A stretch of 64,000 nucleotides of DNA from a phage, in the sequence record PZ452584.1; one strand, given 5' to 3'. Shown piece by piece: positions 38,141-51,540 of this stretch. The translations under genes were made by a program, and so were the position numbers. Within the stretch, counting starts at the first letter, position 1; every line of letters starts with the position of its first letter. Under the pieces are notes generated by a model that was not told the origin of the DNA, made no database searches, and saw nothing but the letters and a program-made list of their open reading frames with translations.

Positions 38141-39823
38141 TTAAACCATTACAGTAAATCGACCAACTTTCTTCATTTGAAGATGCTGACCATATTCTTG
38201 CGGGTCATGGTCTTTATGCGAAATTATAAAAACATTAGTGTTTTTCATTGAATTTATAATATTAGCTACACCTTTAATACCTTCGGCATCAAATGACCCG
38301 TCAAACACTTCATCAAGAATTAATGTACTAATACTAACACCAGATACGATAGAAGCAATATCACGCCAAGTAAATAAAAGAGCAATATCAATTCGTGCCT
38401 TTTCACCTTCACTAAATGAAGCATAACTAAAATCTTCACGACCACGGGATTTAATTGTCTCATTAAATTCTTCATCTAATGTAAACACATAATCCGCTTC
38501 CATTATTTTAAGATAATGGTTAATCTGCTTATTAAATAATGGAATGTACTTTTTAATAATAGCACCTTTAATACCAGAATCTTTGAGCATATCAGTCAAA
38601 ATTCCTCGGTGGTATTTTTCCATTACTAAATTAGTTTTTGTCTTAACAATTTTATCAAGTTCTTCTTGAAGCAGTGCTATTTCATCAGCATGGTCAATAA
38701 ACTCAGAAGATGCTTTTTCTATAGCTGCTTTAACTTTTTTAGCTTTATCTACCGTCGTGATTAGAGATTGCTTTTTATTGCGAATATCATTTGCCAACGA
38801 CTGCTGGGTTTTAATATTATCTCGGTATTCATCAACAAGAACTTTTAAATTATCACGATGTGTTGAAAGCTGTTCAAACGAATGCGTACATTCAGAAACT
38901 TTATCTTTAATTTTAGAAACAACTTTATCACCGGAACTTAATTGTGACAGACAGGTTGGACATAATCCGCCTTCGTGATACATATTAATGACTTTATTAT
39001 ACGAGTCAATTTTTGATTTAATTAAAACTGCTTCTTGACCGATTTTATTAAATGCATCAGTCGGGTCTTCATCCAAAACAATATTAACTAATCTTTCATT
39101 AGCTTCTTCTATTTCCGATTTTAGCGTTCTAGCTTCTTTTGCCAAATCATCATACATATTTTGCAGACGAGTAAGATTGTCACCCGTTAATTTTTTCTGG
39201 CGTTCAACGTTATCATTATATATTTTAATTTGTTGGATAATACTATCTTTTTTAACATCAAGCACTTGGTTTTGTGAATTTAATTCACGTATTAGTGCTT
39301 TATTAAGCTTATCCATTTCAGCTAATGTTCCTACCTCAAGCAGGTCTTCCACAAGCTTTCTTCGTGCAGGGGTCGACAAACCCATGAAAGGGGTATACCC
39401 TGCTGTACCAAGGACAACAATCTGCTTGAAACTGGCATATGACATTCCGATAAGCTGTTCAAATTCTGCTTGGAAATCTTTACTGCTGGCAGATTCATTA
39501 AGACGTGTACCGTTAACGGTGATTTCGAAAACGTTTGGTTTTTGTCCTCTTTTGATATAGTACTTTTTCTCATCATATTCCATCCACAGTTCAACTAAAA
39601 GTTCTTTCTTATTTGTGCTGTTTATTAATTGACCTTTCTTTACATCACGAAATGGCTTGCCAAAAAGCCCAAATGTGATGGCTTCTAACATAGTAGACTT
39701 ACCACCGCCATTTCGTCCAGTAATAAGAGTTTTTTGAACCTTATCTAATTGAATGTCAACTCCATTTTGACCAACTGACATTATATTTTTATATTTTACT
39801 CTATTAAGTTTAAATGATTTCAT
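38141..39823 (-). CDS. 46: recombination endonuclease subunit gp46 (Rad50/SbcC-like ATPase)
   Basis: 560 aa, same length as T4 gp46; Walker A GRNGGGKST. Confidence 0.95.
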   Translation of the reverse strand: MKSFKLNRVKYKNIMSVGQNGVDIQLDKVQKTLITGRNGGGKSTMLEAITFGLFGKPFRDVKKGQLINSTNKKELLVELWMEYDEKKYYIKRGQKPNVFEITVNGTRLNESASSKDFQAEFEQLIGMSYASFKQIVVLGTAGYTPFMGLSTPARRKLVEDLLEVGTLAEMDKLNKALIRELNSQNQVLDVKKDSIIQQIKIYNDNVERQKKLTGDNLTRLQNMYDDLAKEARTLKSEIEEANERLVNIVLDEDPTDAFNKIGQEAVLIKSKIDSYNKVINMYHEGGLCPTCLSQLSSGDKVVSKIKDKVSECTHSFEQLSTHRDNLKVLVDEYRDNIKTQQSLANDIRNKKQSLITTVDKAKKVKAAIEKASSEFIDHADEIALLQEELDKIVKTKTNLVMEKYHRGILTDMLKDSGIKGAIIKKYIPLFNKQINHYLKIMEADYVFTLDEEFNETIKSRGREDFSYASFSEGEKARIDIALLFTWRDIASIVSGVSISTLILDEVFDGSFDAEGIKGVANIINSMKNTNVFIISHKDHDPQEYGQHLQMKKVGRFTVMV

Positions 39824-39838
39824 TTTGTATCCAATTGT

Positions 39839-40693
39839 TCACAATGAAGAAAATTCTTTAACTAAAGCCTGTAATGAAGCCTCTATTGGATATCCATTCT
39901 TAACTAACATTTTCCTAAACATCACATGTTTAGGACGATTATATGATATCCACAATTCATACAATTTATCTTTATTATCCCAATGATAGCCTTTTCGTCG
40001 AGATGCTATATGAGCTTTTCTAATCTCCGGATTTTTCCAACTAGCAGCTACTGAATTTGATATAGCTATTTTATATTCAGGTTTTGATAAAGCAGCACGA
40101 ACAGCCTTTTGGTGTTTAATTTTATTTTCTTCGTTATTAAACCATTCCCTTGAAGCCATTGAAATTTTTTGTTTTGTTTTAAAATTATTTAATCTTTCTT
40201 TGTTATCTTTCCTATTTTTTGCTACTGAAAAATATTTTAATGCCCTTTCTCTAGCAGCATTTCTATTTTGCGGATTTGAATAATATTGTTGAAGCCTTTT
40301 TGATATTGTGTCACTTACATCTTGTTTTATAAAACTATATTCAGCAGCTATTAAATCAACTTCGGCTAAAGATAAATTTTTATATGTTTTTCCTGACATC
40401 ATTCTATTTAAAGCATTTAGCATTTTTCCATTTTTACCTTTTGCTAATAAGAAATGTGCTTTAAAATGATTAAAATGACTTAAATTAACTAAATTCCATG
40501 TAGATTTTAAATATTCAGGAAATATTGATTTAGGAAGCACGTGATGTGCTTCCGTTTTACCTGGAGTTTTAACAGTTGAATTCATAGAAATAAAATTAAT
40601 GTAAGACTTGGCGTCTTCTTCACTCAACGCTAATTTTTCAACTAATTCCTTTATTAAAAATTCATCATTAATGTCAAGTTTAAAATTCTTCAC
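39839..40693 (-). CDS. putative HNH homing endonuclease (Mob-like) 284 aa
   Basis: HH...N...H pattern (EAHHVLPKSIFPEY...NLVNLSHFNHFKAH) plus repeated basic DNA-binding modules; paralog of the ORF at 48376-49215; inserted between 46 and 47. Confidence 0.7.
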   Translation of the reverse strand: MKNFKLDINDEFLIKELVEKLALSEEDAKSYINFISMNSTVKTPGKTEAHHVLPKSIFPEYLKSTWNLVNLSHFNHFKAHFLLAKGKNGKMLNALNRMMSGKTYKNLSLAEVDLIAAEYSFIKQDVSDTISKRLQQYYSNPQNRNAARERALKYFSVAKNRKDNKERLNNFKTKQKISMASREWFNNEENKIKHQKAVRAALSKPEYKIAISNSVAASWKNPEIRKAHIASRRKGYHWDNKDKLYELWISYNRPKHVMFRKMLVKNGYPIEASLQALVKEFSSL

Positions 40694-40905
40694 AAAAGAT
40701 TCCTTTTAATGTATCTTTTAGACCATTCTATCATATCATCATAATCTAAAAAGTATTCATCAAATTCAGCCATGCAAACAACGCCTTGTGCTGCTTTTGA
40801 TGTGATATAAATTATTCCAACATATCTAGAATCTTCTTCGGTATAATCAATGTTTGCTATGAATTCATCATTGATGTCAAATGTCGAAAACTTCACAGTA
40901 TGCAT
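40690..40905 (-). CDS. hypothetical protein about 71 aa
   Basis: ORF track trimmed to internal ATG (M17) to reduce overlap with upstream ORF; start uncertain. Confidence 0.4.
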   Translation of the reverse strand: MHTVKFSTFDINDEFIANIDYTEEDSRYVGIIYITSKAAQGVVCMAEFDEYFLDYDDMIEWSKRYIKRNLL

Positions 40906-46309: not shown

Positions 46310-46510
46310 TTAGCTAAACTTTTTGGCACCCTTCCAGCCTTCGTACATCATTGCGACTGACAATGACAAAGCTCCTTCGCATGCTGCATACTTATTATTC
46401 CAGAACCAATTTAGAAAAACTTCATCCTCAATACCATTGTGTTTCATGTTCTGGAAAAATTTGGCGCGTTCTTCAGCAATTCGCTGCGATAATTTAGATT
46501 CAGGATTCAT
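46310..46510 (-). CDS. hypothetical protein 66 aa
   Basis: ORF track; ATG start. Confidence 0.5.
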   Translation of the reverse strand: MNPESKLSQRIAEERAKFFQNMKHNGIEDEVFLNWFWNNKYAACEGALSLSVAMMYEGWKGAKKFS

Positions 46511-46642
46511 TTAAATTTTCCAGTTACCGTTTTCATCAATAAATTTAATCCAGTCATTTACTGACCACTTAGTTGTATCGCCTTTTGGGGCAGAATTTAA
46601 AGTGTAGAACCCTTGCTTAAAAAGCCAGCGTTTGATATTCAT
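46511..46642 (-). CDS. hypothetical protein about 43 aa
   Basis: ORF track trimmed to internal ATG (M29) preceded by GAGGAAAAT; the listed extension overlaps the upstream gene by 77 nt. Confidence 0.4.
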   Translation of the reverse strand: MNIKRWLFKQGFYTLNSAPKGDTTKWSVNDWIKFIDENGNWKI

Positions 46643-46649
46643 ATTTTCC

Positions 46650-46943
46650 TCAGCTGTAACGATAACACTCGTTTGATTTACGTTTAGCAACTCGTTGAGA
46701 AGTATTATAATCAAAATCATCATCAATGTAAACTGATTTTTTCAACTTTCTTACTTCACCGCGTAATTGACGATTTAACTCATCTTTAACTTCTGAATCA
46801 ATACCTTTCATTCTACGCCATTTATCTGAGCGAAAAATGTTTTTAACCATATCTTTATGACTTACACCATCAGGAGCTTTACGCTTTCCGAAATAGTCAT
46901 AATCACGCACTTTTAAGTCTTTACGACGATACGTTTTACCCAT
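46650..46943 (-). CDS. hypothetical basic protein about 97 aa
   Basis: ORF track trimmed to internal ATG (M16); listed first codon is GTG. Confidence 0.5.
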   Translation of the reverse strand: MGKTYRRKDLKVRDYDYFGKRKAPDGVSHKDMVKNIFRSDKWRRMKGIDSEVKDELNRQLRGEVRKLKKSVYIDDDFDYNTSQRVAKRKSNECYRYS

Positions 46944-47118
46944 GGAGTTTAATTTCCTTAGCAACTGAACTAAATACAGCACGGTCACAAATCATCTGTT
47001 TATGTAACTTAAGTATAAGATAATAAACTTCAAAACCGTTTACATAAGTAACACGAACAACATTACCATTAATAAAATAATATTGTCCCTTTTTAATTTC
47101 TTTATCAACCACAACCAT
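46936..47118 (-). CDS. hypothetical protein 60 aa
   Basis: ORF track; ATG start; early promoter upstream. Confidence 0.5.
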   Translation of the reverse strand: MVVVDKEIKKGQYYFINGNVVRVTYVNGFEVYYLILKLHKQMICDRAVFSSVAKEIKLHG

Positions 47119-47148
47119 ATCAAATCCTCAAAGGCAATTCATGTGTTA

Positions 47149-47178
47149 ATAATACCACAGTTTGAACTTCTTGTAAAC
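47149..47178 (-). promoter_or_regulatory. early promoter for gene at 46936-47118
   Basis: Minus strand GTTTAC-N17-GTATTAT; approximate. Confidence 0.5.
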
Positions 47179-47239
47179 AACTTTGTGAAAATTATTTTAG
47201 GGAATGATAAGAAGGGAACGATAGCTTAGAATGGTAATA

Positions 47240-47262
47240 TACAGAATGCGAGAAAGAAAGGC
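47240..47262 (-). terminator. hairpin terminator candidate after nrdH
   Basis: GGCCC-AGA-GGGCC stem-loop then U-rich tract on the minus strand; approximate. Confidence 0.45.
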
Positions 47263-47276
47263 CCAGAGGGCCCGTC

Positions 47277-47585
47277 TTAATCTTCTATGATATCTCTATC
47301 ATATCCAAGTGAAATGAGAGTTTCTTTGAAGTGTTTAATGTTCTTTTGTCTAGAATCATTAATGAAAATGACCGGATAACGAATGTTAAGAGATGTGAAT
47401 CCAGCGCGTTTAGCAAGAGATACAATCAGCGGACGATCATACTCAATCTTACCGTTATTTGTAAGAACTTTATAGAAAGTAAAAGGAGCATTGAGCTCCT
47501 TTAGAAGTTTTGTAACTGATTGACATCCAGGACAACGACCTACTTCATCTGGAATTCCATAGACTTCAATCTTATTTTGTTTCAC
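47277..47585 (-). CDS. nrdH: NrdH glutaredoxin-like protein
   Basis: 102 aa thioredoxin-fold with CPGC active site; apparent GTG start six nt after AAGGA; position next to nrdG. Confidence 0.8.
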   Translation of the reverse strand: MKQNKIEVYGIPDEVGRCPGCQSVTKLLKELNAPFTFYKVLTNNGKIEYDRPLIVSLAKRAGFTSLNIRYPVIFINDSRQKNIKHFKETLISLGYDRDIIED

Positions 47586-47587
47586 AA

Positions 47588-47800
47588 CTATTCCTTACTA
47601 AGAGCAGCATTCAGCTTGTTAGTAATTTTATCCAGACGCTCATTGAACTCACTAGAAGATAAGCCCTTTTCTGGAGAAATCAAACTAATTACGAAAAATA
47701 TAACAATAAAAGGAATAAGGAAAATAGCTCCAACTGCCATGAACAAAAAGAATGTTACAGTTGTAAGAAAATCAGCTAAACCTTTACGAAATTTATACAT
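47588..47800 (-). CDS. small membrane protein 70 aa
   Basis: ORF track; ATG with AAGGGTAAAAT RBS; central hydrophobic helix. Confidence 0.55.
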   Translation of the reverse strand: MYKFRKGLADFLTTVTFFLFMAVGAIFLIPFIVIFFVISLISPEKGLSSSEFNERLDKITNKLNAALSKE

Positions 47801-47915
47801 ATTTTACCCTTAATTGATTAACCAAGCATTGATAAGCACTAAACTATATTGCGAATAAAATTCTGGACCAAAATGAAAAATCATATCATTTATAGTATCC
47901 ATAATGTAATTCAAT

Positions 47916-48386
47916 TTAATCATGTTTCCACACCCCATCGGTATTTGACCAAAGTCGCTGATTATCTGATCCTCGCCACAGCTTTTTGGTCGGAAGATTT
48001 TTCTCATACTTCCCATCAATAATAACATCAACATATTTAAGCATTTCTAGTTGTTTAATATCTTCAAACTTATATCCTGTCCACAACCAAATGCTTTTAT
48101 TGGGATAAAGATTTTTTACTGTTTGAACAATGCAATGAATAACATCTCGATTGTCAGGATAAAGAGGGTCACCTCCGGTTATAGTTAATCCTTCTATATA
48201 ATCATTATTCAAACATTCAATTAATTGTTCTAGTGTTTCACCAGTGAATGGAATACCATTTCTAGCATTCCATGTTGATTTATTATAACACCCTTCGCAT
48301 TTATGCAAACAACCTGTAACGAAAAGAACTGTCCTGCATCCAGGACCATTAACAAAGCAGCACGGGTATATTCTGTCATAATTCAT
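47916..48386 (-). CDS. nrdG: NrdG, anaerobic ribonucleotide reductase activase (radical SAM)
   Basis: 156 aa, same length as T4 NrdG; Cys cluster C..GC......GC.KCEGC. Confidence 0.9.
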   Translation of the reverse strand: MNYDRIYPCCFVNGPGCRTVLFVTGCLHKCEGCYNKSTWNARNGIPFTGETLEQLIECLNNDYIEGLTITGGDPLYPDNRDVIHCIVQTVKNLYPNKSIWLWTGYKFEDIKQLEMLKYVDVIIDGKYEKNLPTKKLWRGSDNQRLWSNTDGVWKHD

Positions 48387-49215
48387 TTATATATTTCCAA
48401 TTATAGCCTTCAACACTTTTACGTTCGCCATTTAAACATTTTAAAATATTTCCTTTGCTAGAAATATTAAAATATTTTGCTGCGTCTGGTATATAATTAA
48501 ATGTTTTTAAAAGAACACCATCTTTATATGCGCCAAATAAATTAAGAGTATATTTTTCTCGAAGACGCTGATGTTTCCTTTTCATAACCTCAGGATTTGC
48601 ATACGCCAACTTCAATGAATTTCTGTGTTTTTCTTTTACTTCAGGTTTTTGCATTGCTAACTTAGTTAGCCTGGAAATTTTATTTCTAACTTCGTCAGTT
48701 TTCATTGCATTTGACAAATTTAATAAAGTTTTATTTCTAACTTCAGGTTTTTGCATTGCTAACTTAGTTAGTTCTCTATGTCTTTTTCTAAAATCGTCAT
48801 CCTTCCATATATTTTTCGATAATTTTGACATAGAGCGGTGAAATAATTCCTTTTCACTGGAATACAATTTAAAAATTTCATCCAATTCATCCGCATTAAA
48901 TCTATCGGTATTCGAGTTTATCATTCTATGAAAGGCATAACACATTTTACTATTGCTTGTTTTAGCTAAATAGTAATGAGCTAACGCATGGTCATAATAT
49001 GACAAATTAACAATATTCCATTTATCTGTTTTATATTCAGGAAATATAGATTTGGGAAGCACGTGATGTGCTTCCGTTTTTCCTTTTATTTTAGGATTAT
49101 TATAATTTTTTGTTATCAAATCAACATATGACAATAGTAAATCATTATTTTCTTCAAATATTAAAGCTAATTTATCATTCACAAAATCGCAAGGATAAAA
49201 TCTATCATAATTCAT
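48376..49215 (-). CDS. putative HNH homing endonuclease (MobD-like) 279 aa
   Basis: KTEAHHVLPKSIFPEY...NIVNLSYYDHALAH HNH-like motif plus repeated KLAMQKPEV modules; first 9-10 residues mirror the nrdG N-terminus; sits between nrdD and nrdG. Confidence 0.75.
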   Translation of the reverse strand: MNYDRFYPCDFVNDKLALIFEENNDLLLSYVDLITKNYNNPKIKGKTEAHHVLPKSIFPEYKTDKWNIVNLSYYDHALAHYYLAKTSNSKMCYAFHRMINSNTDRFNADELDEIFKLYSSEKELFHRSMSKLSKNIWKDDDFRKRHRELTKLAMQKPEVRNKTLLNLSNAMKTDEVRNKISRLTKLAMQKPEVKEKHRNSLKLAYANPEVMKRKHQRLREKYTLNLFGAYKDGVLLKTFNYIPDAAKYFNISSKGNILKCLNGERKSVEGYNWKYINEL

Positions 49216-51029
49216 TGGTGTTTAACCCTATGCATGATTTCTTTATTTTTACCGAGATTAAATCCGCGTTCGTTCGGGTTTCCAAGATATCCGCATGTTC
49301 TTCTTATTGTATTCATCTTTTTAGGATCAGTTTCTCCACAAATAGAACAAACAAATCCGTTTTCAGTAGGAGTCATTTCATGGGTACTTCCACATGTAAA
49401 ACATTTATCTACTGGCATATTAACACCAAAATAATCTAAATGTTGTGCAGCATAATCCCATACGGCCTCAAGGCCTTTTAGGTTATTTTTCATATCAGGA
49501 AGTTCAACATAAGAAATGTGACCACCTGTCGCAATGAAATGATATGGTGCTTCACGAGAAATTTTTTCAAACGGAGTAATATTTTCTTCTACTGAAACGT
49601 GGAAACTGTTAGTGTACCATCCTTTATCAGTAACATCCTTTACACTTCCATATTTTTCGGTATCGAGTTTACAGAAGCGATAACAAAGGTTTTCAGCAGG
49701 AGTAGAATACAAACTAAAAGCAAATCCGGTTCTTTCAGTCCACTGTTTAAGATGGGCATTCATTTTAGTTAAAATTTCTTGTCCAATATCACGACCGGCA
49801 AGAATATTCAATTCGTGAATACCAATGTATCCTAGAGACACTGAACTTCTACCGTTTTTAAATAACTCAATTATGTCGTCATCAGGTTTAAGACGAACCC
49901 CGAATGCACCTTCTTGGTAAAGAATAGGAGCAACAGTAGCTTTAACTCCTTTTAAGGAACTAATTCTACACATCAAGGCTTCAAAACATAAATCCATTCG
50001 TTCATTGAACAATTCGATAAATTTCTGTTCATTGAACTGTGTTCCAATATAAGAATCTAACGCAATACGAGGAAGATTCAGTGTTACAACACCGAGATTA
50101 TTACGTCCATCAAGAATTTCATTGCCAGTCGAATCTTTCCATACGCTCAAGAAACTACGACAACCCATTGGAGAAACAGGAATAGATGAGCCGGTGATAG
50201 CTTTATTGTTCTTAGCTGAAATAATATCAGGATACATTCTTTTGCTTGCGCACTCTAGAGCAAGCTGTTTAATATCATAGTTCGGATCGTCTTTATAAAG
50301 ATTAACACCTTCTTCAACGAACATAACAAGCTTAGGGAAAATAGGAGTTATCCCATCACGACCGAGACCTTTAATACGATTTTTCAGAATTGCTTTCTGA
50401 ATCATTCGTTCAGTCCAGTCAGTTCCTGTACCAAATGTAATTGTTACAAAAGGTGTTTGTCCGTTTGAACTAAAGAGAGTATTTACTTCATATTCATAAG
50501 CTTGGAATGCATCGTATACGTCTTTTTCTGTTTTAGATTGGGCATAATTCAGTGCATCGGCGATTTGCCATTTTTCTGCGTCCTCGATATGTTTTGCATA
50601 GGTGCGTTTAACATAAGGAGAAAGTACTTTATCTACATTCGCAAAAGTCGTTCCGCCGTATTGGTGAGAAGCAACCTGTGCGGTAATTTGTGCCATAATT
50701 GCAGTAGCAACGCCAATTGATTTAGGAGTTTCAATCTGCGCATTACCAAGCTTAAATCCGTTCTCAAGCATTCCTTTTAAATCTACTAAACAGCAATTAG
50801 TAAATGGAAGAGCAGGGGAATAATCAATATCATGAAAATGAATAATTCCGCTTTCATGCGCTTTCATAATAAAAGACGGGACCATATTTTTGGCAATGTG
50901 TTTAGACACAATACCAGCCATAAGGTCCCGTTGAGTTGGAAAAACACGAGAATCTTTGTTAGCATTCTCGTTTAAAAGGTCTTTATTAGTTTTATGAATC
51001 AATCCTTCAATTTCTTTTTCAATTGTCAT
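49212..51029 (-). CDS. nrdD: NrdD, anaerobic ribonucleotide reductase (glycyl radical enzyme)
   Basis: 605 aa uninterrupted; C-terminal glycyl radical motif RRTCGYLG; same length as spliced T4 NrdD. Confidence 0.97.
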   Translation of the reverse strand: MTIEKEIEGLIHKTNKDLLNENANKDSRVFPTQRDLMAGIVSKHIAKNMVPSFIMKAHESGIIHFHDIDYSPALPFTNCCLVDLKGMLENGFKLGNAQIETPKSIGVATAIMAQITAQVASHQYGGTTFANVDKVLSPYVKRTYAKHIEDAEKWQIADALNYAQSKTEKDVYDAFQAYEYEVNTLFSSNGQTPFVTITFGTGTDWTERMIQKAILKNRIKGLGRDGITPIFPKLVMFVEEGVNLYKDDPNYDIKQLALECASKRMYPDIISAKNNKAITGSSIPVSPMGCRSFLSVWKDSTGNEILDGRNNLGVVTLNLPRIALDSYIGTQFNEQKFIELFNERMDLCFEALMCRISSLKGVKATVAPILYQEGAFGVRLKPDDDIIELFKNGRSSVSLGYIGIHELNILAGRDIGQEILTKMNAHLKQWTERTGFAFSLYSTPAENLCYRFCKLDTEKYGSVKDVTDKGWYTNSFHVSVEENITPFEKISREAPYHFIATGGHISYVELPDMKNNLKGLEAVWDYAAQHLDYFGVNMPVDKCFTCGSTHEMTPTENGFVCSICGETDPKKMNTIRRTCGYLGNPNERGFNLGKNKEIMHRVKHQ

Positions 51030-51499
51030 TTTAAACTCTTTCTAAGCTGCTTCTTAAATGAAGCTATTAATTGTGTTTTGGTGTCAGATTCATTATATTC
51101 AAATCCTCTTTGAAGCATCTCGGCCATCATTTCCTCTTTTCCTAAACGAGAAAATTCCTTTGATTTATCTCCAACAAAGTTAGGGTGAATATTATTTTGG
51201 GTGTAATCGGATTTTAAATAAGTAAGTAAATTTTCTAACCATTCAAGATAATCAACACCTTGTCCCTTTAAGCCAGAACGATTAAATTTATGCTTCATTT
51301 GACCTTCTGCGGCATTGCAGAGATTACAAAGCAATCCACGCACCTTTCCTGCTTTTGGTCCATTTAATTCATGGTCATGGTCGAGGTGATTAGCTTGAAC
51401 GTCAGGATTTAGTTCTCGTTGGCAAATTAAGCATTTACCGTTTTGTGCATCATAAAATTTCTGTTTTTCTTCTTTATATAATTTGCCAGTCAATAACAT
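51026..51499 (-). CDS. 49: endonuclease VII (Holliday junction resolvase) gp49
   Basis: 157 aa; sequence recognised as T4 endo VII; zinc-binding CLIC...H-N-H region. Confidence 0.95.
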   Translation of the reverse strand: MLLTGKLYKEEKQKFYDAQNGKCLICQRELNPDVQANHLDHDHELNGPKAGKVRGLLCNLCNAAEGQMKHKFNRSGLKGQGVDYLEWLENLLTYLKSDYTQNNIHPNFVGDKSKEFSRLGKEEMMAEMLQRGFEYNESDTKTQLIASFKKQLRKSLK

Positions 51500-51540
51500 A
51501 ATAAACCCTTACCTTAAATAGATAAGGGTATTTATTATTT

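Follow-up and report, generated by a model that had tools for sequence, protein, structure and literature searches.

A probable HNH homing-endonuclease gene at the nrdD/nrdG junction of a T4-like phage begins with the 5' end of nrdG

Introduction

How can an endonuclease gene sit within the 5' end of another phage gene and still leave that gene whole? This question is raised by a stretch of phage DNA of 64,000 nucleotides (nt) (sequence record PZ452584.1; the window, as used below, means this whole stretch), in which an open reading frame (ORF) of 279 amino acids (aa) and of the HNH endonuclease type lies between nrdD and nrdG, the genes for the large subunit and the activase of the anaerobic ribonucleotide reductase (RNR), and begins in the manner of nrdG itself. 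A preliminary description had proposed that the endonuclease gene inserted within the first codons of nrdG and captured its start, while a second, intact nrdG 5' end lay downstream, and had regarded this arrangement as the footprint of a homing-endonuclease invasion. The source phage is a Tequatrovirus (T4-like), and its nrdD/nrdG region is 98-99% identical to those of Tequatrovirus genomes such as Escherichia phage OMNI12 and Yersinia phage PST.

The comparisons made in this study render it likely that the 279-aa ORF is a free-standing Mob-type HNH homing-endonuclease gene located at the nrdD/nrdG junction, that it uses the nrdG start, and that the mobile unit consists of the endonuclease body together with a re-coded nrdG 5' end. 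The proposed invasion footprint finds support in relatives in which the site is empty, in an upstream copy of the nrdG start that matches the host, and in the patchy distribution of the element.

Two Similar 5' Ends at One Junction

The three genes are arranged on the minus strand in the order nrdD, HNH ORF and nrdG, with overlaps of 4 nt and 11 nt, and the ORFs and overlaps agree with the preliminary description. The nrdD gene (49212-51029, 605 aa) was identified by the Pfam domains NRDD (E=2e-171) and Gly_radical (E=1.2e-25), and its TGA stop at 49212-49214 shares the letters ATGA with the start codon of the HNH ORF (48376-49215; phrog_655 and phrog_12434), which begins MNYDRFYPCDFVND. The nrdG gene (47916-48386, 156 aa; Fer4_12, E=4.6e-48; Radical_SAM, E=2.2e-7) begins MNYDRIYPCCFVNG and is intact, its length being that found in relatives with an empty site.

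Alignment of the first 40 nt of the HNH ORF (ATGAATTATGATAGATTTTATCCTTGCGATTTTGTGAATG) and of nrdG (ATGAATTATGACAGAATATACCCGTGCTGCTTTGTTAATG) demonstrated strong similarity at the nucleotide level, with 31/40 matching positions and the first 11 nt identical, and the identity of the two ORFs past nt 40 was at background (17/60). The binomial probability of such a match is 8.5e-11, and among 2 million random pairs of 40-mers drawn from the 64-kb window the best reached 28/40 matches. An independent repeat search of the window returned the same pair (48347-48387 and 49176-49216, 78% identity, spacing 829 nt), and when the starts of neighbouring ORFs were compared throughout the window, the threshold was passed only by the HNH/nrdG pair and by one other pair related to a homing-endonuclease gene. 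The mirrored start is therefore well founded, with a sharp break after nt 40. That the shared N-terminus arose by chance, or by a convergence forced by the translation-initiation context, has nothing in its favour except the AT-rich composition of the genome, and it can be given next to no credence in view of the match statistics, the sharp break at nt 40 and the complete identity of the upstream copy with the resident allele of a relative with an empty site, which is described below.

Comparison with Uninterrupted Relatives

Phage vB_EcoM_F1 (L001) is without the HNH ORF, its flanks are about 97% identical to those of the window, and in its genome the nrdD stop and the nrdG ATG overlap. Over the first 40 nt, its nrdG agrees with the HNH ORF at 40/40 positions; past nt 40, F1 reads GCCCTGGATGCAGG (GCCCTGG) and the window reads ATAAATTAGC (ATAAATT). 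A single nrdG 5' end overlapping the nrdD stop was found in F1 and in 9 more Tequatrovirus loci (IMG/VR L005-L012 and L024), and the junction is empty in about 580 GenBank phage records. Because of the 40/40 match in F1, these empty junctions and the strong similarity of the two 5' ends, the HNH gene can be placed in frame after nt 40 of nrdG (codon 14), where it appears to use the start of nrdG. The preliminary description, which had the HNH ATG overlap the nrdD stop as an nrdG start would in an uninserted genome and had the insertion capture that start, is borne out by F1 and the 9 IMG/VR loci; the relatives lacking the endonuclease have one nrdG 5' end each and no duplicated N-terminus.

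The span of the region is 1601 nt in the window versus 772 nt in the empty relatives, and the difference equals the repeat spacing of 829 nt. The inserted DNA can thus be divided into an endonuclease body of 789 nt and a second nrdG 5' end of 40 nt. From upstream to downstream on the minus strand, copy A (49176-49215) corresponds to nt 1-40 of the resident nrdG (MNYDRFYPCDFVN plus the G of codon 14) and now forms the start of the HNH ORF; the body (48387-49175), which is missing from the empty-site relatives, comprises HNH codons 14-277; and copy A' (48347-48386) is the element-borne nrdG 5' end, nt 1-40 (MNYDRIYPCCFVN), by which the full nrdG is restored. The HNH ORF continues past the body into A' and stops at a TGA inside the nrdG start, 8 nt past the nrdG ATG. 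The resulting 11-nt overlap ATGAATTATGA (48376-48386) holds both the nrdG ATG and the out-of-frame HNH stop, and it is at the same time the longest exact run common to A and A'.

The body was found in 32 GenBank phage records, namely 22 Tequatrovirus genomes (97-100% identity) and 10 Klebsiella phages (about 85%), the latter with the same junction. The site is thus polymorphic for presence and absence of the element, with the 22 Tequatrovirus carriers set against the roughly 580 empty records and flanks that are 95-99% identical, and such a patchy distribution appears to be a signature of mobility. None of the 29 nrdG loci fetched from IMG/VR contained the HNH element; the carrier genomes were drawn from the GenBank phages for this reason.

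Resident and Travelling Copies

The carriers outside Tequatrovirus make it possible to ask which of the two nrdG 5' ends belongs to the host. In empty Klebsiella Jiaodaviruses (Roth20; IMG/VR L022 and L031), nrdG begins ATGAATTTCGACAGAATCTACCCTTCTGACTTTGTGAATGGCC (MNFDRIYPSDFVNG). The Jiaodavirus carriers Mexia and UTI-K1 have an 85%-identical endonuclease gene at the same junction position (…GTGAATG/ATAAG, the slash marking the junction), and nt 1-40 of their HNH genes match the resident Jiaodavirus nrdG allele at 40/40 positions in Mexia and at 39/40 in UTI-K1. The downstream nrdG of both carriers begins MNYDRIYPCCFVNG, that is, with the same protein variant as in the window, referred to here as CC, and the element-borne copies of the two genera differ from each other at synonymous sites only. 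Since the captured codons match the local allele in both genera and the downstream CC copy is constant, the upstream copy appears to be resident DNA, and the downstream copy appears to move with the element between phage genera.

The distribution of differences follows the same boundary. In both genera, carriers differ from empty sites at 7-10 nt within nrdG nt 1-30, at 1-6 nt within nt 31-60, and at about 0-1 nt per 30 beyond nt 60; the nrdD side is resident-like, and the divergence from the empty relatives is limited to about nt 1-57 of nrdG. A' differs from A at 9 positions, which amount to F6I, D10C (with all three codon bases changed) and four synonymous changes, and Asp10 of NrdG is present in 29/29 empty-site loci sampled, including NrdG proteins that are only 55-60% identical. 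The intact second nrdG 5' end reported earlier is therefore only partly what it had seemed: nrdG is indeed whole (156 aa), but its 5' end is not a simple duplicate, being a distinct variant that moves between genera.

The insertion is flanked by repeats, and a single genome cannot tell the above description from its reverse, in which the nrdG-like start and the body form the mobile unit, inserted where nrdD and nrdG meet, and it is the downstream start of nrdG that is resident. This reversed polarity is very improbable once the genera are compared, as the upstream copy is the local resident allele in both Tequatrovirus and Jiaodavirus, the downstream copy is one protein variant in both and unlike either resident allele, and the T4-type mobC behaves likewise, its upstream part being matched to the host.

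With the downstream copy as the travelling one, the following mechanism may be proposed. The HNH gene starts at the ATG lying over the nrdD stop, and it would most likely rely on nrdD transcription and on translational coupling. The mobile unit would be the 789-nt body with the 40-nt re-coded nrdG 5' end on its 3' side; the enzyme would nick or cut empty nrdG alleles near the nt 40 junction, repair from a carrier genome would copy the body and the re-coded end, and the recipient would retain its own first 40 nrdG nt, which would explain why the upstream copy follows the host. The occurrence of the same junction in two genera, together with the host-matched left flank, points to this position as the predicted site of the DNA cut. 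As the nrdG ATG lies 8 nt before the endonuclease stop, translation of nrdG would probably be coupled to that of the endonuclease. The preserved expression of both genes, as put forward in the preliminary description, would likewise follow from the overlaps.

Two further features of the Jiaodavirus loci were observed. An extra ORF of 77 aa follows nrdD and overlaps both of its neighbours, the downstream one being nrdG or the HNH gene (UTI-K1 L003 3685-3918; Roth20 L040 2159-2392). In UTI-K1, the nrdG-derived start of the HNH gene is probably the reason why this gene is wrongly annotated as a second 'activating protein'.

Features of the Endonuclease

The HNH ORF protein matched the PHROG families phrog_655 'homing endonuclease' (E=7e-37) and phrog_12434 'HNH endonuclease' (E=7e-15), and phages with 98-99% identity annotate the gene as a homing endonuclease or as mobC, the latter in Yersinia phage PST. 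The HNH catalytic core was located at residues 47-84 (EAHHVLPKSIFPEY...WNIVNLSYYDHALAHYYL; 48964-49077, minus strand), in which H50, H51, N67, H76 and H80 are invariant across 10 homologues. The AlphaFold2 model contains strands at residues 47-51 and 68-72 and a helix at 73-84, with a predicted local distance difference test (pLDDT) score of 80-92 for this block, so a beta-beta-alpha HNH core is predicted; residues 1-8 are modelled as coil. The core is followed by a predicted DNA-binding linker with an internal tandem duplication of 102 nt (34 codons, KLAMQKPEV... modules; 48628-48771, minus strand), detected by a repeat search and Tandem Repeats Finder. Exact 32-nt repeats lie 102 nt apart in this linker, and a database variant (P0002) is one unit shorter, which suggests recombination between linker modules. 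The C-terminal residues 235-272 (48400-48513, minus strand) resemble a NUMOD1 or I-HmuI-like helix-turn-helix region, with matches to PF22083 (E=2.4e-4; 21.1 bits, cut-off 27) and PF07453 (E=5.7e-3) that are both below the Pfam cut-offs. A search of NCBIfam with the HNH ORF gave no relevant match, sequence and fold searches of the PDB with its protein gave nothing significant, and matches to GerD and GltG were set aside as they involve low-complexity, helical sequence.

Homologues at other loci (P0004, P0005 and P0008) have unrelated N-termini and align with the protein only from about residue 15, and the first 14 residues thus appear foreign to the endonuclease family. The next in-frame ATG of the HNH ORF is at codon 91, beyond the catalytic motif, so the gene would depend on its borrowed start. 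An intron- or intein-encoded endonuclease was rejected as a candidate, since a search of 46500-51500 against Rfam gave no family above threshold and the ORF is out of frame with any continuing host protein; the arrangement is not like that of an intron or intein because nrdG is restored by the duplicated 5' end instead.

Several observations weigh against the mobile-endonuclease interpretation and have to be set beside this evidence. In the Pfam search of the HNH ORF, no HNH model was matched, and the NUMOD-type matches remained below the curated cut-offs. The 22 Tequatrovirus copies are 97-100% identical and hence are not independent observations. Since free-standing phage endonucleases often have their cleavage site at a distance from where the gene is inserted, the target need not lie near nt 40. 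Nor is the CC variant confined to the HNH element, as it also follows segH (T6 and RB7) and some T4-type mobC copies, and its core (nrdG nt 12-30) occurs in three empty junctions, those of U5 (L042), ESh24 (L043) and ERS-1 (H163). Finally, a 2010 review gives the activity of T4 mobC as not determined and its target as unknown (PMC2988022), and the literature searched yielded no published nicking, cleavage or inheritance data for T4 MobC or for the protein of the window.

That activity was never shown for T4 mobC also speaks for the possibility that the HNH ORF is an inactive relic, kept open since translation of nrdG now needs ribosomes that read through it, and so does the position of the nrdG ATG, which is without a good Shine-Dalgarno sequence and lies inside the end of the HNH ORF. 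However, comparison of the window with the Jiaodavirus copy over 265 codons gave a ratio of non-synonymous to synonymous substitution (dN/dS) of 0.08 at a dS of 0.85, and this value indicates selection on the amino-acid sequence and not only on the open reading frame. The catalytic residues are invariant as well, and movement is implied by the fact that both genera have the element at one junction, each with a left flank matched to the host. An inactive relic is therefore unlikely, and the endonuclease protein appears to be under purifying selection.

The CC Variant of nrdG

The divergence of A' from A may serve to make the rebuilt nrdG immune to cutting, it may protect the element from deletion between direct repeats, or the CC variant may be a linked passenger without function. 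In the last case, the variant would be the nrdG allele of an earlier host, carried along within 40 nt of the endonuclease gene as part of a co-conversion tract. Its occurrence with other endonucleases and in empty sites means that it may be such a passenger and not an adaptation, and we regard this as a serious possibility, if a slightly disfavoured one. Three endonuclease genes have the CC variant tied to them, namely segH (T6 and RB7), the T4-type mobC of 215Ecol030PP and the HNH gene of the window, and nt 1-56 of T6 nrdG are identical to those of the window. The variant is absent from T4, which has mobC and a D-type nrdG start, and from C2-3, which has segH and a D-type start, and it is present in the three empty sites named above. 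The synonymous-only differences between the genera are likewise expected if the copy diverged along with the body under the constraint on NrdG. On the other side, Asp10 is kept in all 29 empty-site loci and its replacement by Cys needs a change of all three codon bases; in both genera the foreign tract stops abruptly, at about nt 40-57, which is not predicted by passive linkage alone; and every inspected or matched copy of the element carries the CC variant.

A stricter formulation, in which the CC variant occurs only beside an endonuclease gene, was ruled out by the empty sites of U5, ESh24 and ERS-1. These three empty sites could be footprints of the loss of an endonuclease gene or resistant alleles. 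A degenerate pattern for the CC variant of the nrdG start found no match in IMG/VR.

Relation to MobC, SegH and Other Systems

The nrdD/nrdG junction is the mobC site of phage T4 and a hot spot that is occupied by T4-type mobC and segH as well. Among GenBank phages, the segH body was found in 73 records, and the T4-type mobC body and the HNH gene body of the window in 32 each, next to the empty junctions counted above. In the 2010 review, mobC is listed among the free-standing HNH genes, with nrdG and nrdD as its neighbours, and both seg and mob genes are described as targeting anaerobic RNR genes (PMC2988022); SegH was reported to replace mobC (Sandegren et al. 2005, as cited in that review). 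No mention of a borrowed nrdG start was found in the literature searched, which did not cover the primary paper, Sandegren et al. 2005.

The HNH gene of the window resembles T4 mobC in its locus, its strand, the 4-nt nrdD overlap, the 11-nt nrdG overlap with the same sequence ATGAATTATGA, the presence of nrdG codons at its start and its membership in phrog_655, and the C-terminal ends of the two proteins are also alike (GYTWKYKDEL and GYNWKYINEL). Nevertheless, the proteins differ in length, with 210 aa in T4 and 279 aa here, BLASTP against T4 MobC aligned a single segment of 60 residues around the HNH motif with 38% identity, and the junction lies at nrdG nt 21 in T4 mobC versus nt 40 here. 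A megablast search with the T4 mobC body gave 32 records, all with at least 99% identity, and the window's HNH gene is too diverged to join them. Orthology with T4 MobC was rejected, since full-length homology fails even though the architecture of the locus and junction is shared. The HNH gene therefore appears to represent a different endonuclease lineage at the mobC site, and as far as sequence can tell it is an uncharacterised free-standing HNH homing-endonuclease gene of an already known T4 hot spot.

SegH, a GIY-YIG enzyme of T6, RB3-type phages and others, shares this hot spot and often has a CC-type nrdG start downstream, but it belongs to a different nuclease family (TIGR01453, group I intron endonuclease type), and segH, unlike the HNH gene, borrows from the 3' end of nrdD and stops at a TGA at nrdG nt 2-4.

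T4 MobE and I-HmuI, HNH nicking homing endonucleases with DNA-binding modules of the NUMOD type (PMC2988022; PMC2790892), offer likenesses in their promoterless cassette with a start over the stop of the upstream RNR gene, and in the succession of HNH core, repeated modules and C-terminal helix-turn-helix. MobE differs in lying between nrdA and nrdB, and it is not reported to start with host-gene codons; its strand-specific nick in nrdB has been demonstrated, whereas the activity of the window's HNH protein is predicted from sequence. The mobE of Aeromonas phage Aeh1 is also a free-standing HNH gene inside an RNR coding region, with no intron or intein and with the host function kept (Friedrich et al. 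2007, as cited in PMC3653736). In Aeh1, however, mobE splits nrdA into two genes, the pieces of which assemble as proteins (PMC3653736), whereas here the duplicated, re-coded 5' end keeps the host gene undivided. Fungal mitochondria also have free-standing endonuclease genes that come together with a duplicated end of an adjacent gene (the atp9 N-terminus, atp6 and cox1), but those belong to the GIY-YIG and LAGLIDADG families, and the duplicates are mostly pseudogenes and not the endonuclease's own start (PMC7487136).

Borrowed Starts at Other Loci

T4 mobC begins MNYDRIY/SNLVN, the slash again marking the junction, and has thus captured nt 1-21 of nrdG. The alternative that T4 mobC has a degenerate junction at nt 40, with codons 8-13 as decayed nrdG, was rejected, because it gives a match of 9/21 and this only with a gap. 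The mobC body of Klebsiella phage Wolf_ER13 (L047) agrees with that of T4 (L004) at 100% identity, as do the first ~90 nt of nrdG, yet its mobC starts with the Jiaodavirus-type nrdG codons MNFDRIY, and the DNA upstream is unrelated to that of T4. In T4 itself, nt 1-330 of nrdG are Jiaodavirus-like and the remainder is Tequatrovirus-like, which looks like a recent exchange between genera with a co-conversion tract. The nrdD/nrdG junction may thus be seen as a site of exchange between the DNA of Escherichia and Klebsiella phages.

The segH gene (T6 L037 1460-1530; RB7 L034; C2-3 L035) starts ATGCATAGG, which corresponds to the nrdD codons Met-His-Arg that in empty sites stand 7 codons ahead of the nrdD stop, and the carriers have a re-coded nrdD tail upstream, ending in VKRVKHA before the stop, versus MHRVKHQ in the normal gene. 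On the sequence evidence, segH appears to mirror the capture seen at nrdG, its borrowed codons coming from the 3' end of the gene upstream. A further observation concerns Escherichia phage 215Ecol030PP (L038), which at 820-1560 has a segH-type re-coded nrdD tail, a 12-nt leftover of the normal nrdD tail, a T4-type mobC and a CC-type nrdG start; this hybrid junction can be read as evidence of successive replacement of endonuclease genes at the mobC site.

The window contains a second example. A paralogous HNH gene of 284 aa (39839-40693, minus strand; 36% identical by sequence comparison) lies between 46.1 and gene 46 and starts GTGAAGAATTTTAAACTT, the 18 nt with which gene 46 begins in T4, where this site is empty. 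Gene 46 (38141-39823) is restored downstream with a re-coded start ATGAAATCATTTAAACTT (MKSFKL), in which N3S is a three-base change, and the paralogue occurs in about 70 GenBank phages, including T2, T6 and RB68. A metagenomic relative (P0004) has ATGAAAGATTT in common with the downstream, dexA-like exonuclease gene, which is no more than suggestive of start capture at that gene.

A borrowed start combined with a re-coded host 5' end therefore appears common to several such genes. The usual picture of free-standing homing-endonuclease genes in T4-like phages is that of an intergenic position; the HNH gene of the window, T4 mobC and the gene-46 paralogue lie just inside the downstream gene, and such genes would borrow the start of the host gene and mend that gene with their own spare copy of its 5' end. 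Whether this amounts to a general insertion strategy of Mob-type HNH genes in T4-like phages, in which cleavage takes place at the position marked by the captured codons, immunity and protection from deletion come from the re-coded copy, and coupling ties the host gene to the selfish gene, is a tentative proposal that we consider rather doubtful in this full form. If it were true, the predicted target of T4 MobC would be near nrdG nt 21 and that of the window's enzyme near nt 40. In any case, the borrowed-start pattern is a simple sequence signature by which such insertions could be found.

A separate likeness was seen upstream of the paralogue. The first 45 nt of 46.1 (40690-40896, minus strand; VKFSTFDINDEFIAN) resemble the first 45 nt of the paralogue (40649-40693; VKNFKLDINDEFLIK), with 30/42 matches when the start codon is left out. 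T4 has 46.1 with the same start and without the HNH gene, and the stretch in common is DINDEF.

Expression Signals and the nrdD Intron

Neither the HNH ORF start nor the nrdG start has a well-placed Shine-Dalgarno sequence, and RNA folding around the two starts gave z values of +0.3 and +0.5, with no sign of a regulatory fold. In the promoter scan, sigma-70-like sites were fewer than the shuffled expectation, and no MotA-type promoter was found in the HNH gene. A match to the T4 late-promoter box (7/8) was rejected as a signal for nrdG, since it overlaps the nrdG ATG and so cannot serve that gene.

A perfect 6-bp hairpin (GTCCTG-GATG-CAGGAC; 48331-48346, minus strand) was detected one base past the insertion junction, in nrdG codons 13-20, by a terminator-like scan and in the RNA fold centroid. 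In F1, with its empty site (L001 2027-2126), a longer hairpin extends across the junction, with a fold z of -2.2.

The nrdD genes of T4, PST and F1 hold a group I intron with I-TevII, and nrdD is uninterrupted in the window. The source genome thus lacks the nrdD intron and carries the HNH gene at the nrdG junction.

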